From: an uncultured bacterium
Lineage (GTDB): Bacteria; Patescibacteriota; Saccharimonadia; Saccharimonadales; 2-12-FULL-41-12
Assembly (NCBI GenBank): GCA_963834265.1
Contig: CAWIAU010000002.1
Span: 11,929-75,928, forward strand
Reading direction: 5' to 3'
DNA length: 64,000 nt
Shown: positions 1,395 to 43,117 of the stretch, one piece after another
How positions within the stretch are numbered: position 1 is the first letter of the stretch
Layout: each line of letters opens with the position of its first letter
Notes under the pieces: generated by a model
The model's database searches: none
What the model was told of the DNA's origin: nothing
The model's input: only the letters and a program-made list of their open reading frames with translations
Translations under genes and position numbers: made by a program

Positions 1395-1760
1395 ATGGAA
1401 ATGGATAAAGTAATAAACAATATACAAAGACGAGCCGCGAGGCAAAAAAAACTTATGGCGCGGATGCGACTTCAAACGCGTCGAAACGATGCGCTGTTTG
1501 ATGGATGGAGTATTGTCCATCTGGGCAGTGGCGTTCTGATGGGATGGCTTATGGCTCCATTCATTGCACTGGTTCTTCTAGTAATGTGGGAACCGTTGGA
1601 GATACTTATTTTGTCTCCGTTTTTAGCAAAACACGGTATCGAATTTGGCTATGAATCCCTCCGTAATGCTTTATCAGACATATTCTTTGACGTAATAGGC
1701 GTAATCATAGGTGCATGGATAATTACGGAATTTATTGCTCCGCCTTTTCATCTGTTTTGA
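1395..1760 (+). CDS. Hypothetical small membrane protein
   Basis: 121-aa ORF with a basic N-terminus followed by 2-3 hydrophobic segments (WSIVHLGSGVLMGWLMAPFIALVLLVMW; FFDVIGVIIGAWIITEFI). Confidence 0.5.
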   Translation: MEMDKVINNIQRRAARQKKLMARMRLQTRRNDALFDGWSIVHLGSGVLMGWLMAPFIALVLLVMWEPLEILILSPFLAKHGIEFGYESLRNALSDIFFDVIGVIIGAWIITEFIAPPFHLF

Positions 1761-1776
1761 GTTGTAGCGATAACAA

Positions 1777-1895
1777 TGGTGCGGATGAAAGGATTTGGTC
1801 ACGTTCCGCAACCCCGGAAGTTCATGATTGCAAGCACAGCTTGCATCAGAACGTTCCCTTGCGAACTGCCACAGGCAGATCTCACCTTCACGCCT
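1777..1895 (-). pseudogene. tRNA-Leu 3'-half pseudo-copy interrupted in the T-loop by an 86-nt insert
   Basis: 1777-1797 matches the tRNA-Leu 3' end (1959-1979) at 20/21. 1884-1895 matches 1981-1992 at 12/12. The blocks are 1 nt apart in the real gene and 86 nt apart here. No 5' acceptor, D or anticodon arm is present. Confidence 0.6.
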
Positions 1896-1958
1896 GGGGT
1901 TCGGTTCAACTCATCAGCAATCAAAAAAGACCGTTAAACCTCGACTGTCATTTTTTGA

Positions 1959-2043
1959 TGGTGCGGATGAAAGGACTTGAACCTTCACGCCTTACGGCAC
2001 TAGCTCCTAAGGCTAGCGTGTCTACCAATTCCACCACATCCGC
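1959..2043 (-). tRNA. tRNA-Leu, anticodon UAG, class II with long variable arm, CCA encoded
   Basis: Hand-folded cloverleaf: GCGGATG TG GTGG AATTGGTAGA CAC G CTAGC CTTAGGA GCTAG TGCCGTAAGGCGT GAAGG TTCAAGT CCTTT CATCCGC A CCA. It aligns arm for arm with E. coli tRNA-Leu. Confidence 0.95.
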
Positions 2044-2092: not shown

Positions 2093-3055
2093 ATGCTTAC
2101 TTCCAGTAATCACCCTTTCCTAAATAATTGTCCGGTTATGCAATCTTCTGAATGGAAAGATTTTCAGGAAGCTTTAGGTAAATCTGTCGTGCAGCTGGAG
2201 GGGAATGGTTGGAAATGTGTATTGATCGAGAGACGGACGAAACCAGGGAACTACTGGCTGGCTCCTTATGGGCCTGTTTTAAAGGACTCAAAAGTTTTGC
2301 CGGAAGCATTACTAGCTATTAAACAGGCAGCAAAAGAAAATGGAATATCGTGGGTCGTTGTCGAACCTTTCGGCCGTAATCTCAGCTATCGAGCAGGATC
2401 TTTGGGGCTAAGAAAGGCAAGAAAAAGTTATAATCCGTCATACACCGTGATTAATGACCTGAGCCTCGATCGAGCCACTCGCTTCAGTGCGCTTTCACCA
2501 ACCTATCGTAATCTGATTAATCGCGCGAAAGGACGCGGCTTAAATTTGCGGTCCTCGACAAATCCTGCCGAAATTACGATTTTTACTGACATGATCAATA
2601 CAGTTGCAGATCGTAAAGCAATTTTACTGCACAACGCTGATTATTTCCGGACTCAGGCAGAAATTTTGATGCCGAAAGAAAATGCAGTTTTAGAAATTGC
2701 TTATTTCGAAAACAAGCCGATTGCCAGCTGTTTTATTCTCTGGCATGGGGCTGTTGCCCACTATGCTTATGCCGGGTCATACCCCGAATTTCGTAAGCTT
2801 GAGGCAGGTACGGTATTGCTCTGGCAAGCTATGCAAAATGCTAAAGATCGAGGTGTGCAGTGGTTTGACCTATTTGGAGTAGCACCACCCGATTCTTCTG
2901 TTTTGCATCCGTGGCAAGGCTTCAGCACTTTCAAGCGTAAATTTGGAGGAGAAGACATAGAGCTCGGTGGCACATGGGAACTCCCAATAAATTTGCCTCG
3001 CTATAAAACTTACAAAATGACGCTTCCGTTTATTCGTAAAATGCAACGATTGTAA
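2093..3055 (+). CDS. FemAB-family peptidoglycan interpeptide-bridge aminoacyltransferase (FemX/MurM-like)
   Basis: 320-aa ORF with family-typical features: N-terminal QSSEWKDFQ, HYAYAGS, FRKLEAGTVLLWQAM, GVQWFDLFGV, GFSTFKRKFGG. The true start may be the internal Met at 2138. Confidence 0.8.
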   Translation: MLTSSNHPFLNNCPVMQSSEWKDFQEALGKSVVQLEGNGWKCVLIERRTKPGNYWLAPYGPVLKDSKVLPEALLAIKQAAKENGISWVVVEPFGRNLSYRAGSLGLRKARKSYNPSYTVINDLSLDRATRFSALSPTYRNLINRAKGRGLNLRSSTNPAEITIFTDMINTVADRKAILLHNADYFRTQAEILMPKENAVLEIAYFENKPIASCFILWHGAVAHYAYAGSYPEFRKLEAGTVLLWQAMQNAKDRGVQWFDLFGVAPPDSSVLHPWQGFSTFKRKFGGEDIELGGTWELPINLPRYKTYKMTLPFIRKMQRL

Positions 3056-14518: not shown

Positions 14519-15490
14519 TTATTGTTTTTGTTCGGCAGGTACGGAGTTGCTGTCTATGGCCTGTGCCAGTTCCTGTTCTGTTGTGGCTGCTGCATTGCGC
14601 TTCTCTACGATACTGTTGTATTCGATAATAATACGTTTTGCCTGCCCTACCAGATTATTGTATTGATTTACCAGACTATTAAAGCCCGGTACCATGGCAT
14701 TGTATTGCTCAGTCTGCTTATTGGCCAATAGTTCATTCAGGGTTGTCCGTTGAGCTTCGACAGTCTTACCCAGGACATCTATTTGCGATTCATTTGCTTC
14801 GATCCGGGTTTTCAGCCGTGTTAACTGAGCGTCGTAATCAGCAACCTGACTCCGGAGATTCACAAACGTCTGTTCGTATTGTTCAGAGAATGCAACGACT
14901 TTTTTGCGATCAGTGAAATACCGTCCGAAGTATTGCTCCAGTTCGGGCGTTAGATCACGTATTTCTGTGCCAAGAATAGAATGCAATTCCGTAGGCACTA
15001 CATTCGGATCCCTGGCCCGGTATTGTTCAACAGTTTTCGCTATACGTTCATCCTTCAGATTGGCGAAAAATTCAGCAGTTAATCTGTCGATACGTTTGCG
15101 CTCCGATCCACTAAGTCTGTCATACTCAGCATGTAATATTTCATGAGCGGCAGTTACTTCGATAATTCCTCTCAATCGGGGGTCGGTTACATCAAGCAGG
15201 AATATGCCTCTCCGCGTATCGTAACAACCAAGCACAATTGACTGCTCCTCAACGCCACACTGGCTCCTGAAAGCTGTTTTATCATCCAGCTCCGGATGAT
15301 TGATATAAAATACGCGGCGCGTGGGATCCCGCATAGTTGTCTGATCGGCAAGTTGGACAATCCTGGCCGGTGGCTGGTAATTTCTGAGAGCGGCATAGTC
15401 GAATATATCCTGCTGTCGCGTAACTGCCACAATACAGAGCGATATAAATGCTGCAAGGAAAAACCAAGGTAATAGTTTTCTTTTATTCAT
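14519..15490 (-). CDS. Membrane-anchored hypothetical protein with an HExxH motif and a long C-terminal coiled coil
   Basis: 323 aa. N-terminal TM (LLPWFFLAAFISLCIVAV), AAHEILHAEY (HExxH), and a C-terminal third that is heptad-like and Q/E/N-rich. Confidence 0.65.
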   Translation of the reverse strand: MNKRKLLPWFFLAAFISLCIVAVTRQQDIFDYAALRNYQPPARIVQLADQTTMRDPTRRVFYINHPELDDKTAFRSQCGVEEQSIVLGCYDTRRGIFLLDVTDPRLRGIIEVTAAHEILHAEYDRLSGSERKRIDRLTAEFFANLKDERIAKTVEQYRARDPNVVPTELHSILGTEIRDLTPELEQYFGRYFTDRKKVVAFSEQYEQTFVNLRSQVADYDAQLTRLKTRIEANESQIDVLGKTVEAQRTTLNELLANKQTEQYNAMVPGFNSLVNQYNNLVGQAKRIIIEYNSIVEKRNAAATTEQELAQAIDSNSVPAEQKQ

Positions 15491-36442: not shown

Positions 36443-37696
36443 TTAATTACTTAAGGTATCTTCGGGATATGTCTGATCATCGTATAGACGATTATTCGGA
36501 AAATTGTCGCTGCTATATGACTCTGATTCAAAACACTGATTTCCTTTACCGTGCTTGTAAGGATCGCTGTTATCGGATTGATAGTCATCGTACGGATATG
36601 AGCTGCCGCTGAACGCTTCCAGCGGGTTTTGACTGCCTGTATCTTTTTTGGTCTTGGTATCCGTTTTAAATATTGCACATAGTTCATAGCTACCTGAAGT
36701 CTTTTTATAACTATAATCATATTTTTCGGCGCGTGATTTCTGTTGATCATTCAGCTTTATATCACTCAAATCCGAGGGTAATCTACCCCGATTATCTGAT
36801 TTATAATTACTGATTTTACTCTGAATTGAGTTTAAATCGCCGCTGATAGCATCATCGATAAATGACGCGCGCTGGTCTTTAAAAGCGGTAGTCATATATA
36901 TAAGTGACAATATTATAGCGATAGCAATCAGCCCGTAATGATGAGTACTGACAACCATGGGTCTGATTACCTGCTGATTACGGTAATCATGACTGTATAG
37001 CAAGGCTGTGAACACGAGAATGAGAGTACCTAGACCGTTAGCCAGCAGACTCCGCCACGGGAAAGTATTATTATCAGTAATACCAAAACTTGCAAAATAC
37101 GAAATCATGTCATAAACGAAAGCAATAGAAAATCCAAGTCCCCAGAGACCAACATTTAGCAAAAAGAACCCGAGGAAACCTTTCCGCCAGCCACGATTTT
37201 TTATATCAGGCGCAGCATCTTCTACTTTATTAATACGTTTAGTGAGCACCAGTATAAGTGGAATAATAACCATCAGGGTTGCAATCATTGATATTGAGAC
37301 AGTGTAGGCGAAACTTGAAAAGTATCCGTATTCATCGTTATTGTATTTCAGAATAGTATTGAGCATTGATATGACTACGCCCAGCAAAATTCCAATTGAT
37401 ATCAGAACAAGCGCGTACTCGACCAGATAAGCTCTGGCTTCACCTACCCATCCTGCCAGGCCAAGGCGTTTCGGGACAAAGTTATAGTTCTCGCTTTGTG
37501 CGTTATCCGATGATATTGCTGTGTCAGCGGTTCGACTTTCTGCGGGGCCATAAGGTGAGGTATCTGTCGAAGTATGCAGCTGTTGAGATGCCACAGGATG
37601 GCGTGGCGCAGCTGAGTGGAATTCCGAACTTCCGGCGCGAGGTTTGTGGGGCATGGCATCAGAACCGTTCTCTGGCCCGTCATTTTTTGGATTCAT
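36443..37696 (-). CDS. Hypothetical polytopic membrane protein with a disordered N-terminus and a D/Y/S-rich C-terminus
   Basis: ~417 aa with about 6 hydrophobic segments. The track starts at GTG 37699; ATG 37696 has AAGGAG 7 nt upstream. Confidence 0.7.
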   Translation of the reverse strand: MNPKNDGPENGSDAMPHKPRAGSSEFHSAAPRHPVASQQLHTSTDTSPYGPAESRTADTAISSDNAQSENYNFVPKRLGLAGWVGEARAYLVEYALVLISIGILLGVVISMLNTILKYNNDEYGYFSSFAYTVSISMIATLMVIIPLILVLTKRINKVEDAAPDIKNRGWRKGFLGFFLLNVGLWGLGFSIAFVYDMISYFASFGITDNNTFPWRSLLANGLGTLILVFTALLYSHDYRNQQVIRPMVVSTHHYGLIAIAIILSLIYMTTAFKDQRASFIDDAISGDLNSIQSKISNYKSDNRGRLPSDLSDIKLNDQQKSRAEKYDYSYKKTSGSYELCAIFKTDTKTKKDTGSQNPLEAFSGSSYPYDDYQSDNSDPYKHGKGNQCFESESYSSDNFPNNRLYDDQTYPEDTLSN

Positions 37697-37702
37697 CACT
37701 AA

Positions 37703-39784: not shown

Positions 39785-40606
39785 CTAGATGTACACATCC
39801 TCGCGCTCATTAAGATAGACTATTGTTGCATGAAGCGTAGCATCAGGCTTACTTGCCTGTTCTACCGCCACTGTAGTCGCAGTTCCAATATCTTCTCCCA
39901 CTGCTCTCAGGCTGGATAGAGCCAAAAAAGCTATCTCTGCCCGATTATTAAATAATGTATCCTGAGGCAGTCCGTTGCCTTCGCCAATTCCAACCACAGA
40001 AACCCAATTTGCAGGCAGGGAAACAACATCGGAAGGCTTATTTCGTCGTAAGCCTTTCTGTTGGGTTTTTCTATGCGACATTATATCAACTGGCATTGTG
40101 CTTTCGGTACAAAGCCTTATTAAATACTCCCCATATCCCAAGGAAGTAAGTTCAGCGGCGAGTGCATCAAGAGTCGTATACTCATCAGCACGTATAAATC
40201 TGTGGCGACCGGAATTGTACCATTTTGCCGATACAGTACCTGCAGGTACGAAGTCGCCTGTTTCTTCAACCTCTCCTCTTCGTCCTTTTGTTAAATCTCT
40301 AACCTTTTTTTCCATCTCCTTATTAAGAATGAGGTGATGATTTTTATCTGCCAGTATATCCTGTGGAGAGCTGCGCCTTGGACTACTTGCCACCTGTAAA
40401 CTATCGTGGATTACCGTATTGTCTGCGGCCCATGCCATAACTCTTCTTCCGATGCCAATATGACCGTCTGTTATCAAGCGGTTGTGAGATAACCCCTGGC
40501 GAGGCTCATTACATGCTCGCAGGCTGTCAATATCATTTGCAAGCAGACGAACACCAAGTCGTGCAACTTTTGTAATAGCTTTTTCGGCCGATCTTTGATT
40601 AGACAT
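39785..40606 (-). CDS. Hypothetical protein (273 aa), no recognisable domain
   Basis: Long ORF with no hydrophobic segments, codon usage like its neighbours, and only short antisense ORFs competing. Confidence 0.55.
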   Translation of the reverse strand: MSNQRSAEKAITKVARLGVRLLANDIDSLRACNEPRQGLSHNRLITDGHIGIGRRVMAWAADNTVIHDSLQVASSPRRSSPQDILADKNHHLILNKEMEKKVRDLTKGRRGEVEETGDFVPAGTVSAKWYNSGRHRFIRADEYTTLDALAAELTSLGYGEYLIRLCTESTMPVDIMSHRKTQQKGLRRNKPSDVVSLPANWVSVVGIGEGNGLPQDTLFNNRAEIAFLALSSLRAVGEDIGTATTVAVEQASKPDATLHATIVYLNEREDVYI

Positions 40607-40658: not shown

Positions 40659-41258
40659 TTAATATGCTTCTAAAGAATCAAAAATTGAGCTGGCCGCCTT
40701 AGAAACTTCATCAAGCATTTTATCAGCCTCAGGATCATCAGGCCCCATCTGCGGGTAATGGAGAGCATAAAAATATTCGCCAATCACTTTGAGCATGCCA
40801 TTTTTTGCTCTATAAGTATCCTGTATCCTGACATCCGTTTCGCCAATAGATCCGGACAGATCGTTTATTTTCCACCTATAGATACCCCAGGCTCCTATAT
40901 ACGAAGCGTGTTCTGCTTCAAGTTTAGTATCGTATTTAGTCAAAAGTTTTATCGAGCCAGCCGGAGCATAATCTTTCGGAGTGACATATTCGTAGGTTAT
41001 ATTTTTAAAGTCCCTGGGTACCTTGGCTTTAACGCTCCATTCTTTGATCTCGAGATATTCGTTAGTAGTGCCGTCCGATTTTTTAGACTCATCTTGCTTT
41101 GGTGAGGCTGTAGAATCGTCCACTACCGAATTTTGACGTTTTGACGAATCCCGCTGGGATATGACAACATAACTAATTGCCCCGCCGACACATCCCAAAA
41201 CGAGCACGGCCAGAACAACTGCTGTAAGTGTAAAGCCTTTTTGATTATTAAATTTCAT
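40659..41258 (-). CDS. Pilin-like protein with an atypical prepilin leader (KG|FTLTA, no Glu5)
   Basis: 199 aa. MKFNNQKGFTLTAVVLAVLVLGCVGG resembles a class III signal but lacks the conserved E5. An S/D/K-rich linker precedes a globular domain. Confidence 0.5.
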   Translation of the reverse strand: MKFNNQKGFTLTAVVLAVLVLGCVGGAISYVVISQRDSSKRQNSVVDDSTASPKQDESKKSDGTTNEYLEIKEWSVKAKVPRDFKNITYEYVTPKDYAPAGSIKLLTKYDTKLEAEHASYIGAWGIYRWKINDLSGSIGETDVRIQDTYRAKNGMLKVIGEYFYALHYPQMGPDDPEADKMLDEVSKAASSIFDSLEAY

Positions 41259-41935: not shown

Positions 41936-43117
41936 TTACTTCAGAATTTTACGAGCTAACGACTCCTCAGAGAGATACCGTATACGGAATTCATCCCACA
42001 GGGCTGCTTGCAAATATCCGGCTGTCCGGTCTTCATAAACCACTTTACCGGCGGCGTTTATAACGACATCGGAAATATGACAGGAAACGGGACCACCCGG
42101 TACGTGTTTGCCGGTAAAATGACTCCGCCAGAAAACAAACTCAGGTATCTTCGTGCTTAATAGTACTGAACTTGTAGGTACCACTGGATCTTCAAACTCC
42201 AGACCGGGGCCTAGTTCCGGAAACTGAGAGATCTGACTTCGGGCGGCTAATCCATGATAGACTGACCAGCTTGTCCCCAGAATTTTTTCTGAGCTTGCAT
42301 ATATCCCTTTTTGTAACGTATCGGCAACTTTTACTCCGAATTTAGGAAGCGTACTCAGGCTGCGAAAATATGTGCTGTACATATATCGTTCCCGTAAAGT
42401 TTCAATCAACATAGTCGCCATTAGCAATACGTCGTAATCAAATCTCTTCTCCGGCGGTACCACTACGATTGTTCCGGTCTCTCTCGCAGGCAAAATTAGT
42501 TCTTTCATGGGATAGCCGGCTTTCTTCAAAGTATTTCGTTGCCGGACAGAGAGTGTTAAAATATCAGCCTTTTCCTGATCAAAGTCGCTCACATTTAACT
42601 TTTTGTAACTACTATGCAATTTGGTAGTCCAGTCAGCCGGCTCAGTTAGCATTGACAGAGCCAGTAATTCACCCGGGTTCTGTCGCTTCAATACGGAGTC
42701 AATAGATCGGAGTCCGCAAATTTTCATCAGTTTTTTCGGCGGATGTATCTGCAAATACTGTCTTATAACGCTTGCCTTGATAGCCCAAACCGGCTGGGCG
42801 ATAGACAGATTTTTAACAAATTTAATCGTCTTTTTGCACATTTCGACAGAACTGTCGATTGGAGTAATTCCGATGTGCTGTGCGAGCTTTTGATTATCCA
42901 TAGCTGCGCGTTGTGCAAGGGCATAGTACAGTTCTCTGTCTGTCGTATCGGCAGGATCAAGCCCCAACATATCGTTTACTGTCCGGAGCGAGTGATTTAT
43001 CTCTGTTGCTAAATGTATATCAAGGCCTTTGCGGCCGCTTAAGTTCTCCCATTCGCGCACCAAATGGCTGAAATGCGGCTCAGGAGCCTGCAAAATATCA
43101 GAAATCAAACGTGACAC
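41936..43117 (-). CDS. Hypothetical protein (393 aa), no recognisable domain
   Basis: Long ORF with an uncertain GTG start and no TM. It sits immediately upstream of the SLOG gene on the same strand. Confidence 0.6.
   Translation of the reverse strand: MSRLISDILQAPEPHFSHLVREWENLSGRKGLDIHLATEINHSLRTVNDMLGLDPADTTDRELYYALAQRAAMDNQKLAQHIGITPIDSSVEMCKKTIKFVKNLSIAQPVWAIKASVIRQYLQIHPPKKLMKICGLRSIDSVLKRQNPGELLALSMLTEPADWTTKLHSSYKKLNVSDFDQEKADILTLSVRQRNTLKKAGYPMKELILPARETGTIVVVPPEKRFDYDVLLMATMLIETLRERYMYSTYFRSLSTLPKFGVKVADTLQKGIYASSEKILGTSWSVYHGLAARSQISQFPELGPGLEFEDPVVPTSSVLLSTKIPEFVFWRSHFTGKHVPGGPVSCHISDVVINAAGKVVYEDRTAGYLQAALWDEFRIRYLSEESLARKILK

Follow-up and report, generated by a model that had tools for sequence, protein, structure and literature searches.

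The window, i.e., the whole 64-kb stretch of DNA that was analysed, represents an ordinary chromosomal region of a Saccharibacteria/Patescibacteria-type organism. Relatives of its ribosomal protein L19 are recorded under 'Candidatus Saccharibacteria bacterium' and 'Patescibacteria group bacterium'. It carries an intact tRNA-Leu(UAG) gene, divergent from a FemAB-family gene (2093-3055) that is followed by rsmD, recG and tyrS. The 54 ORFs of at least 120 aa in the window either encoded housekeeping Pfam domains or had no match. None of them contained an integrase, transposase, reverse transcriptase or Cas/TnpB domain in the Pfam and PHROGs searches of the window, which spans only about 1.8 kb downstream of the tRNA remnant listed below; this agrees with the preliminary description, in which no integrase was seen. 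Two ORFs are located in the 1.8 kb beyond the remnant, neither of them with a Pfam or PHROGs match. The left-flank proteins (217 aa and 121 aa) were considered as mobile-element cargo and rejected, given that they had no match in either collection and that the 217-aa protein was unlike the 209-aa protein of a related locus (L008). The following features were assigned next to the tRNA gene:

1959-2043, minus strand: intact tRNA-Leu(UAG), 85 nt, type II, with a long variable arm and encoded CCA (ARAGORN; Rfam RF00005, 60.5 bits).
1921-1958, no strand assigned: 38-nt hairpin right after the tRNA, composed of an A-run, a weak stem and a T-run, a bidirectional palindrome resembling an intrinsic terminator (inverted repeat; fold; homologous hairpins in loci L131, L037, L095 and L041).
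1899-1920, minus strand: decayed inverted copy of the 3' third of the tRNA (reverse complement, approximately positions 73 to 50), TTGCTGATGAGTTGAACCGAAC (local alignment to the reverse complement of the 3' 34 nt of the tRNA; inverted repeat).
1884-1895, minus strand: direct copy (12/12) of the tRNA from the end of its variable arm through the 5' T stem to T54 (positions 44-54), AGGCGTGAAGGT (repeat search).
1798-1883, minus strand: 86-nt insert in place of T55, a conserved three-hairpin domain referred to as type 1 (alignments, RNAalifold, covariance model and pair counts).
1777-1797, minus strand: direct 20/21 copy of C56 through CCA (3' T-loop, 3' T stem, 3' acceptor strand, A73 and CCA), CAAATCCTTTCATCCGCACCA (repeat search).

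Read along the minus strand, the tRNA (2043 to 1959) is followed by the 38-nt hairpin (1958-1921), TTGCTGATGAGTTGAACCGAACCCC, AGGCGTGAAGGT, the 86 nt and CAAATCCTTTCATCCGCACCA. The repeat search paired 1776-1797 with 1958-1979 (21/22) and 1884-1895 with 1981-1992 (12/12). The 12-mer and the 21-mer (up to 3 mismatches tolerated) each occurred exactly twice in the 64 kb, as compared to 0 occurrences expected from 100 shuffles. The two blocks are spaced by one base (T55) in the intact gene and by 86 nt in the copy. The tRNA call, both copied blocks and their spacing, as reported in the preliminary description, were therefore all reproduced. At the T54/C56 junction of the remnant the T-loop is split, T55 is lost and the overlap is not duplicated, and only 161 nt separate the two tRNA 3'-end repeats. 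The inverted repeat TCAAAAAA/TTTTTTGA, noted earlier beside the tRNA, was also found by the repeat search and lies in the terminator-like hairpin. The position after the tRNA is occupied by strong terminators in relatives and by a weak hairpin in the window. The inverted copy of the tRNA 3' end at 1899-1920 had been overlooked in the preliminary description.

Several short motifs of this segment were considered and set aside. No promoter-like site was found at the window element, and CTTGAACC, examined as a promoter, was without a -10 element at sensible spacing. The idea of a hammerhead was abandoned, as CUGAUGAG (1910-1917) is not kept in the homologs. In the window fold, GCUGAUGAG pairs with CUUUCAUCCGC because the inverted arm is present, and the acceptor stem is not maintained; the tRNA-like acceptor pairing GCUGAUG/CAUCCGC was consequently regarded as a by-product of that arm, being absent in L095, L037 and L041.

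Related loci were collected by two routes, namely via FemAB homologs at 61-69% identity (syntenic loci L004-L010 and L131-L135) and by a metagenome scan with the 22-nt T-arm/acceptor sequence (L011-L130). A search of the genome contigs with the FemAB protein gave just three loci, all of them distant and irrelevant. Homologs of the 86-nt insert were found in three other Saccharibacteria/Patescibacteria-type contigs (L095, L010 and L075), all of them within tRNA-Leu(UAG) fragments. This does not fit the chance duplication that the preliminary description had allowed for, with unrelated sequence downstream of the tRNA-Leu of relatives and no other copy of the insert. The domain of L095 is located 3' of the tRNA-Leu, with the T54/C56 junction as in the window. 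L075 contains one downstream copy at T54/C56, cut by the contig end, and two upstream copies in a 5' tRNA fragment. The domain of L010 is enclosed by a 5' fragment (positions 1-37) and by C56-T65, and a different, intact tRNA-Leu lies downstream of it. In L010 and L075 it is found in rearranged fragments without a CCA tail. The left flank of the insert ends in GGT or TGT in every case, and the tRNA-derived flank bases track the local tRNA (variable arm AATGCGTG in L075 versus AAGGCGTG in L095). The type-1 copies probably descend from one insertion or replacement at T54/C56, and the left junction of L010 would have arisen by a deletion between two AGG triplets (AGG/AGG microhomology).

The spread of the element is patchy, with many related tRNA-Leu loci lacking it (e.g., L008, L012, L014 and L029), and no partner protein gene conserved near the domain was found. 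A search with the covariance model of the domain (R1) matched the window at 1795-1886 with 102 bits, and in the window together with 141 loci (approximately 0.9 Mb) it returned type-1 copies only, always at tRNA-Leu; no second type-1 copy was found in the 64-kb window. The domain had no match in INPHARED, and four motif/junction patterns had none in IMG/VR, for which reason an origin from a phage or prophage was rejected. Small palindromic elements, such as the Rickettsia palindromic elements and the IS200/IS605-derived PATEs, insert into RNA or protein genes. The window shares with them a hairpin-rich, ORF-less insert of about 90 nt, devoid of terminal inverted repeats or a target duplication. 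It differs in not being dispersed, as the 64 kb contain a single copy and all copies lie in tRNA-Leu remnants, and a search of the window revealed neither a Y1 transposase nor TnpB. Dispersed miniature elements (MITE, PATE or REP-like) are defined by several copies at unrelated sites, which were not observed. Of the alternatives listed in the preliminary description, the miniature mobile element is thus weakened by a motif never found away from tRNA-Leu, and the tRNA-derived small RNA fits best.

The insert folds into three helices, which together with the old T stem as closing helix (P0) form a four-way junction predicted by RNAalifold; in the lineage of the window, the domain comprises about 90 nt:

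1860-1884, minus strand: P1, a helix of 10 pairs interrupted by a 1x1 A/G internal loop and capped by a UGU loop (4 pairs changed on both sides; 96.7% of cells paired).
1820-1852, minus strand: P2, bulged hairpin of 14 pairs (both-side changes in 10 of the 14 pairs).
1797-1813, minus strand: P3, 7-pair hairpin GGUUGCG-GAA-CGUGACC, the last base of which is C56 of the old T-loop (conserved G.U pair; GC-to-AU swap in L075).

RNAalifold placed 40 pairs in P1-P3 and the closing helix, with compensatory changes in 19 of them. In the covariance-model alignment of six copies, 96.2% of the cells were paired and 15 of 31 pairs had changed on both sides, and so the folding of the insert, raised in the preliminary description, is backed by covariation across homologs. 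These six copies derive from four metagenomic contigs and probably from one ancestral insertion, so the phylogenetic depth of the sample is small. None of the 500 shuffles matched the type-1 domain in the paired-cell and pair-change measures, and controls with slid partners gave only 28-42% paired cells for the type-1 helices. The mean column identity of the four full copies was 84%. Their invariant blocks were GGUGAGA, GCC.GUGGC, UCGCAAGGGA and GGGGU.GC.G.A.GUGACC, and the joining nucleotides of the junction (GGUGAGA, UCGCAAGGGA and CGGGG) did not vary at all. The closing helix P0 is retained in L010 and in the second upstream copy of L075, despite flanks that are non-homologous to those of the window. 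In each of the four full copies, the fold of the tRNA-sense strand was 2-7 kcal/mol more stable than that of the antisense strand. All the short hairpins pointed out in the preliminary description are present in the sequence, and two of them, ctgcc/ggcag (P1) and tgcaagc/gcttgca (the tip of P2), are helices conserved in the homologs. The hairpin ttccg-N6-cggaa and the palindrome gaacgttc, on the other hand, are window-specific and clash with P3, which is supported by covariation. The search of Rfam (version 15, including ribozymes, riboswitches, tmRNA and introns) up to E=10 gave no match overlapping any of the four full copies. The type-1 domain therefore combines compensated helices with conserved unpaired nucleotides, as generally expected of a conserved RNA motif, and the locus apparently carries a structured motif that has not been described.

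An insert within a T-loop raises the question of a degenerate intron, i.e., a former self-splicing or protein-dependent T-loop intron of a full-length tRNA-Leu that would have been decaying since an intron-less copy took its place. A single ancestral tRNA with an insert at T54/C56 could, through later deletions, account for every copy, as the microhomology in L010 illustrates, the closing helix is conserved, and the ends GUGAG...AC recall group II boundaries. We judged the latter likeness to be unlikely to be meaningful, as the domain falls far short of the size of group I or group II cores and an AGC hairpin resembling domain V is absent. No full-length interrupted gene was found, every carrier being a fragment, in keeping with the earlier statement that this is not a functional intron-containing tRNA. 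Rejoining of the flanks would give a 6-nt T-loop without U55, or UCCAAGU, and the type-2 replacements described below cannot splice to a normal T-loop. The domain consists of three simple hairpins with no bulge-helix-bulge motif and no Rfam intron match. A literature search for T-loop introns in candidate phyla radiation bacteria, or for integrases of Saccharibacteria tRNA-Leu, yielded nothing specific. We consider the intron to be the least probable of the explanations.

The domain is part of a larger arrangement. The 182-nt unit downstream of the tRNA (1777-1958, minus strand) has the same architecture in a clade of Saccharibacteria-like (Patescibacteria) genomes. It includes, in order, the tRNA (direct), a bidirectional terminator palindrome, an inverted arm, a short loop level with the variable arm and a direct arm. 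The latter has retained the T stem as well as the 3' acceptor strand with its CCA, and its T-loop is replaced. The inverted arm of the window is weak, with a score of 19 versus a shuffle mean of 13.3 (sd 2.8, i.e., about 2 sd), but it is positionally homologous to those of the relatives. The arms of L025, L131, L075, L037, L041 and L115 scored 26-39 and exceeded 300 of 300 shuffles. The arm was supported in nine loci, most clearly in L025 (TGGTGCGG-TG--CGGATTTGAACCTTCATG, aligned with the reverse-complemented 3' end of the tRNA), and it is decaying in most loci, including the window. The same scaffold carries other replacements of the T-loop, namely a 27-29-nt hairpin with covarying pairs (type 2; L005, L037, L041, L131 and L006), a 24-nt hairpin in L115 and an approximately 72-nt multi-hairpin insert in L025, where Tandem Repeats Finder detected no tandem array. 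Tandem inversion duplications, which form by snap-back at quasi-palindromes, have reportedly been described in Salmonella (Kugelberg et al. 2010). The layout observed here corresponds to theirs in having three copies in direct-inverted-direct order, turn-arounds at hairpins (the terminator and the variable arm) and asymmetrically decayed junctions. The window differs by its arms of about 30 nt, a long evolutionary persistence and the presence of a selected structured domain in one arm.

A direct-inverted-direct layout would also be expected after integration of a folded single-stranded hairpin site. According to such an explanation, the structure acts at the DNA level, with arms and hairpins folding as single-stranded DNA into a duplex that mimics the T arm and acceptor (as in attP of CTX-type phages or integron attC), or serves as a signal for recombination or replication. 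The hairpins show strand asymmetry and contain G.T-compatible pairs, long palindromes join the terminator to the tRNA 3' end and to the inverted arm, and positions 1206-1287 of L075 were matched by miRNA-precursor models on both strands. The conservation of the hairpins fits a role in single-stranded DNA equally well. With the inverted arm decaying in most loci, however, the mimic duplex is not maintained. No single-stranded DNA phage, Rep or Xer-exploiting genes were found near the element, and the phage databases offered no match. A function as a DNA structure thus seems quite improbable.

Alternatively, the element might be neutral, functionless debris of a local duplication, its conservation being due to recent ancestry and gene conversion with the tRNA. 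The few copies, the patchy spread and the decaying inverted arm would agree with this, and quasi-palindromes, such as terminators and tRNA arms, are hot spots of template switching (PMC3820800). Nevertheless, the helices differ at many positions and are still paired, and the single-stranded bases of the junction are invariant. The type-1 copies are not recent, because the adjacent FemAB proteins are only about 61-69% identical. Moreover, loss of the 180 nt between direct repeats would be expected in streamlined genomes. We therefore regard mere debris as highly improbable.

The relatives also document turnover of the tRNA-Leu gene itself. In L131, the intact tRNA has the acceptor GGGCGAG/CTCGCCC, and the remnant is of the GGGGATG type and ends in CCTTTCATCCCCACCA. 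This remnant is older than the adjacent gene, since it represents the allele of the intact tRNAs in L005, L008 and L133. Fragments of the 5' part of a tRNA precede the intact or replacement tRNA-Leu in L006, L010, L075 and L112. A phage-type large serine integrase (phrog_95, E=3e-72) is convergent with the tRNA-Leu of L004, and a comparison of L005 (occupied) with L008 (empty) showed the presence or absence of a whole 131-nt type-2 unit before the same gene. The general idea of gene turnover or integration at tRNA-Leu is thus supported in relatives.

These observations bear on the possibility, put forward in the preliminary description, of an att-type scar or a miniature integrative element. 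It assumes integration at the T-loop of tRNA-Leu, with the 21-nt repeat as the displaced host 3' end (attR) and the 161 nt as the residue of an element, or as a non-autonomous element mobilised in trans. The repeat spans the T-loop to the CCA, as in T-loop-class tRNA integration, and the older acceptor type of the L131 remnant, the 5' fragments upstream of replacement tRNAs, the integrase of L004 and the occupied and empty sites of the type-2 element with a shared flanking gene all favour it. Disruption of a tRNA gene along with an element-borne replacement tRNA has a precedent in tRNA-dependent lysogeny (Guerrero-Bustamante & Hatfull 2024, PMC10865867). With the tRNA att repeats of integrases (T-loop and anticodon-loop classes; tRNA-dependent lysogeny, PMC10865867), the window shares a tRNA 3' end that is directly repeated from the T-loop onward. 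The relatives additionally share the disrupted old tRNA-Leu beside a replacement tRNA-Leu, with an integrase in one case.

In contrast to integrase att remnants, the window has no recombinase or element body, its T arm is split by a conserved folded domain, the overlap is not duplicated and an inverted tRNA-derived arm precedes the remnant. Hence, of the features that characterize an att scar, the repeat of the 3' segment was found, and neither a recombinase with element DNA (within the window, which spans about 1.8 kb beyond the remnant) nor a normal core with overlap was. A recombinase was likewise not found at the other type-1 loci. A crossover by a tyrosine or serine recombinase at T54/C56 was rejected, as one base is lost there and the duplicated overlap is absent. 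A double-stranded circle of 86-182 bp would be an implausible integrase substrate, and covarying helices with invariant junction bases are unexpected in a scar. The restriction of the motif to tRNA-Leu and its lack of matches in IMG/VR and INPHARED also speak against this reading. Genuine prophage att fragments of a related tRNA-Leu(UAG) in IMG/VR (L136-L141) begin at the anticodon stem and have the T arm intact. The helices with invariant junctions, the recurrent T54/C56 site lacking an overlap duplication and the inverted arm are not explained by a plain scar. We consider an att scar or miniature element to be the strongest of the competing explanations, but somewhat unlikely.

The reading that we favour is that the window element is a tRNA-derived structured RNA, to which we give a probability of roughly 40%, and the 86-nt domain is more likely an undescribed small RNA than junk. 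A small RNA on the sense strand is preferred because the invariance of the junction and the covariation of the helices constitute a signature of functional RNA, and because the domain folds better on the tRNA strand. The scaffold would have arisen as a tandem-inversion duplication, by snap-back or template switching at the palindrome of the terminator and the hairpin of the variable arm, or alternatively when a resident tRNA gene was replaced. The domain may have been kept because it works as a nucleic-acid structure. It could be transcribed on the tRNA strand, e.g., by read-through of the weak hairpin at 1921-1958, and the transcript might function as a small RNA of tRNA origin. Its T stem and acceptor/CCA tail would then form a tRNA-type 3' end that could serve in processing, in stability, or in pairing with tRNA-Leu or the tRNA-Leu gene, and the domain inserted at the junction would serve as the functional module, probably protein-binding or catalytic.

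Non-coding RNAs that are tRNA-like or tRNA-derived include the tRNA-like domain of tmRNA, bacterial YrlA (Y-RNA-like), mascRNA and viral tRNA-like structures. Common to these and the window is the use of a T stem with an acceptor/CCA-type 3' end as a module by a non-tRNA domain. The window differs in that the domain is situated in the T-loop itself, which destroys the elbow, and that no paired 5' acceptor strand is maintained; the Rfam search gave no tmRNA or YrlA match for the element. Counting against an RNA, the element of L095 is flanked by strong bidirectional terminators on either side, and transcription is not evident there. The few copies, the patchy spread, the missing CCA tail in L010 and L075 and the lack of a promoter-like site and of a conserved partner gene count against it as well. 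It is rather unlikely that the four-way-junction domain of about 90 nt represents a new functional RNA class with a recruited tRNA-Leu T stem and 3' tail, either a scaffold-plus-guide (structured 5' scaffold, then approximately 21 nt identical to the tRNA-Leu 3' end) or a small ribozyme, that acts on tRNA-Leu(UAG), its precursor or its gene with a protein encoded elsewhere.

If the domain is a functional RNA, a new family of structured RNAs would be added to Saccharibacteria/Patescibacteria, whose genomes are tiny and in which hardly any non-coding RNAs have been characterised. The element would then represent an unusual reuse of a tRNA gene fragment as a scaffold, with a new module grafted into the T-loop. 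The R1 covariance model makes the question of a functional RNA testable on larger sets of genomes and transcriptomes. Even without a function, the locus records repeated turnover of an essential single-copy tRNA-Leu gene, because it and its relatives preserve old-allele remnants, replacement tRNAs and direct-inverted-direct duplications. The finding is thereby relevant to the remodelling of tRNA genes by mobile elements and replication errors in streamlined genomes.

Duplicated and inverted arms of the tRNA-Leu 3' end were observed in the metagenome loci L025 and L115:

L025 3250-3520, minus strand: inverted tRNA 3'-end copy and a direct arm
L115 2551-2730, plus strand: large duplicated segment around a 75-nt body

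The inverted copy in L025 was the best preserved among the loci and was followed by the direct arm, which carried a different multi-hairpin T-loop insert of approximately 72 nt, and then by more T-stem-like fragments (GTCCTTTCCTCC). The L115 repeat (approximately 62 nt), comprising C56 to CCA, the whole terminator and ACGAGAT, was present on each side of the 75-nt body and was larger than the repeat of the other loci. In the metagenome locus L075, the miRNA-precursor models MIR6140 and MIR4227 matched both strands at 1206-1287, because a long palindrome is formed there by the tRNA T arm/3' end together with the terminator and inverted arm. These matches are an artefact, but they usefully point to the hairpin by an independent route.

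Fragments of the tRNA 5' part were present in the metagenome locus L112 and in L006, a related locus syntenic via FemAB:

L112 4466-4563, minus strand: two tandem tRNA-Leu 5' pseudo-fragments, upstream of the intact gene
L006 2700-2962, minus strand: 5' tRNA-Leu fragment, complete tRNA-Leu and old 3' remnant

Both L112 pseudo-fragments contained TTACGTAACAATC, which includes the palindrome TTACGTAA, in place of the D-loop ATTG, after which the sequence resumed at the variable-arm end. The L006 fragment corresponded to positions 1-24 of a GGGGATG-type tRNA-Leu. Behind it lay a complete tRNA-Leu whose acceptor differed (GCGCGGT) and which was flanked by the inverted repeat CCTGGTAGTAAAG / CTTTTACTACTGGG. 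Past this gene came the old anticodon-to-3' remnant with a type-2 hairpin in its T-loop.

A recombinase was encoded in another syntenic locus, L004:

L004 570-2189, plus strand: large serine recombinase (phage integrase phrog_95), convergent with tRNA-Leu
L004 2095-2179, minus strand: tRNA-Leu

Two small ORFs separated the tRNA from FemAB, and an antisense T-arm motif (CTTAAACCTTCA) was located 13 nt upstream of the tRNA; a similar motif was found 15 nt upstream of the tRNA in the syntenic locus L010. Classical att-type fragments were present in five IMG/VR contigs (L136-L139, L141); they belonged to a related tRNA-Leu(UAG), began at its anticodon stem and retained an intact T arm. In L136 and L139, an oppositely oriented intact tRNA-Leu was located at a distance of approximately 1.7 kb.

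The surroundings of the element in the window included the following features:

1395-1760, plus strand: 121-aa predicted membrane ORF, converging on the element
2093-3055, plus strand: FemAB-family peptidyltransferase gene, divergent from tRNA-Leu (1959-2043, minus strand)
14519-15490, 36443-37699, 39785-40606, 40659-41258 and 41936-43117, all minus strand: ORFs unmatched in Pfam

FemAB-family enzymes use aminoacyl-tRNA as a substrate, and the FemAB/tRNA-Leu pairing was kept in L005, L006, L133 and L010. Several sizeable ORFs (199-418 aa), lying amid housekeeping genes, had no Pfam match at E<=1e-5. The 121-aa ORF, which matched neither Pfam nor PHROGs, stopped 16 nt short of the remnant. Transcription of this ORF would continue antisense across 1777-1920, as far as the bidirectional hairpin (1921-1958), giving a 3' UTR with complementarity to the final 21 nt of tRNA-Leu.
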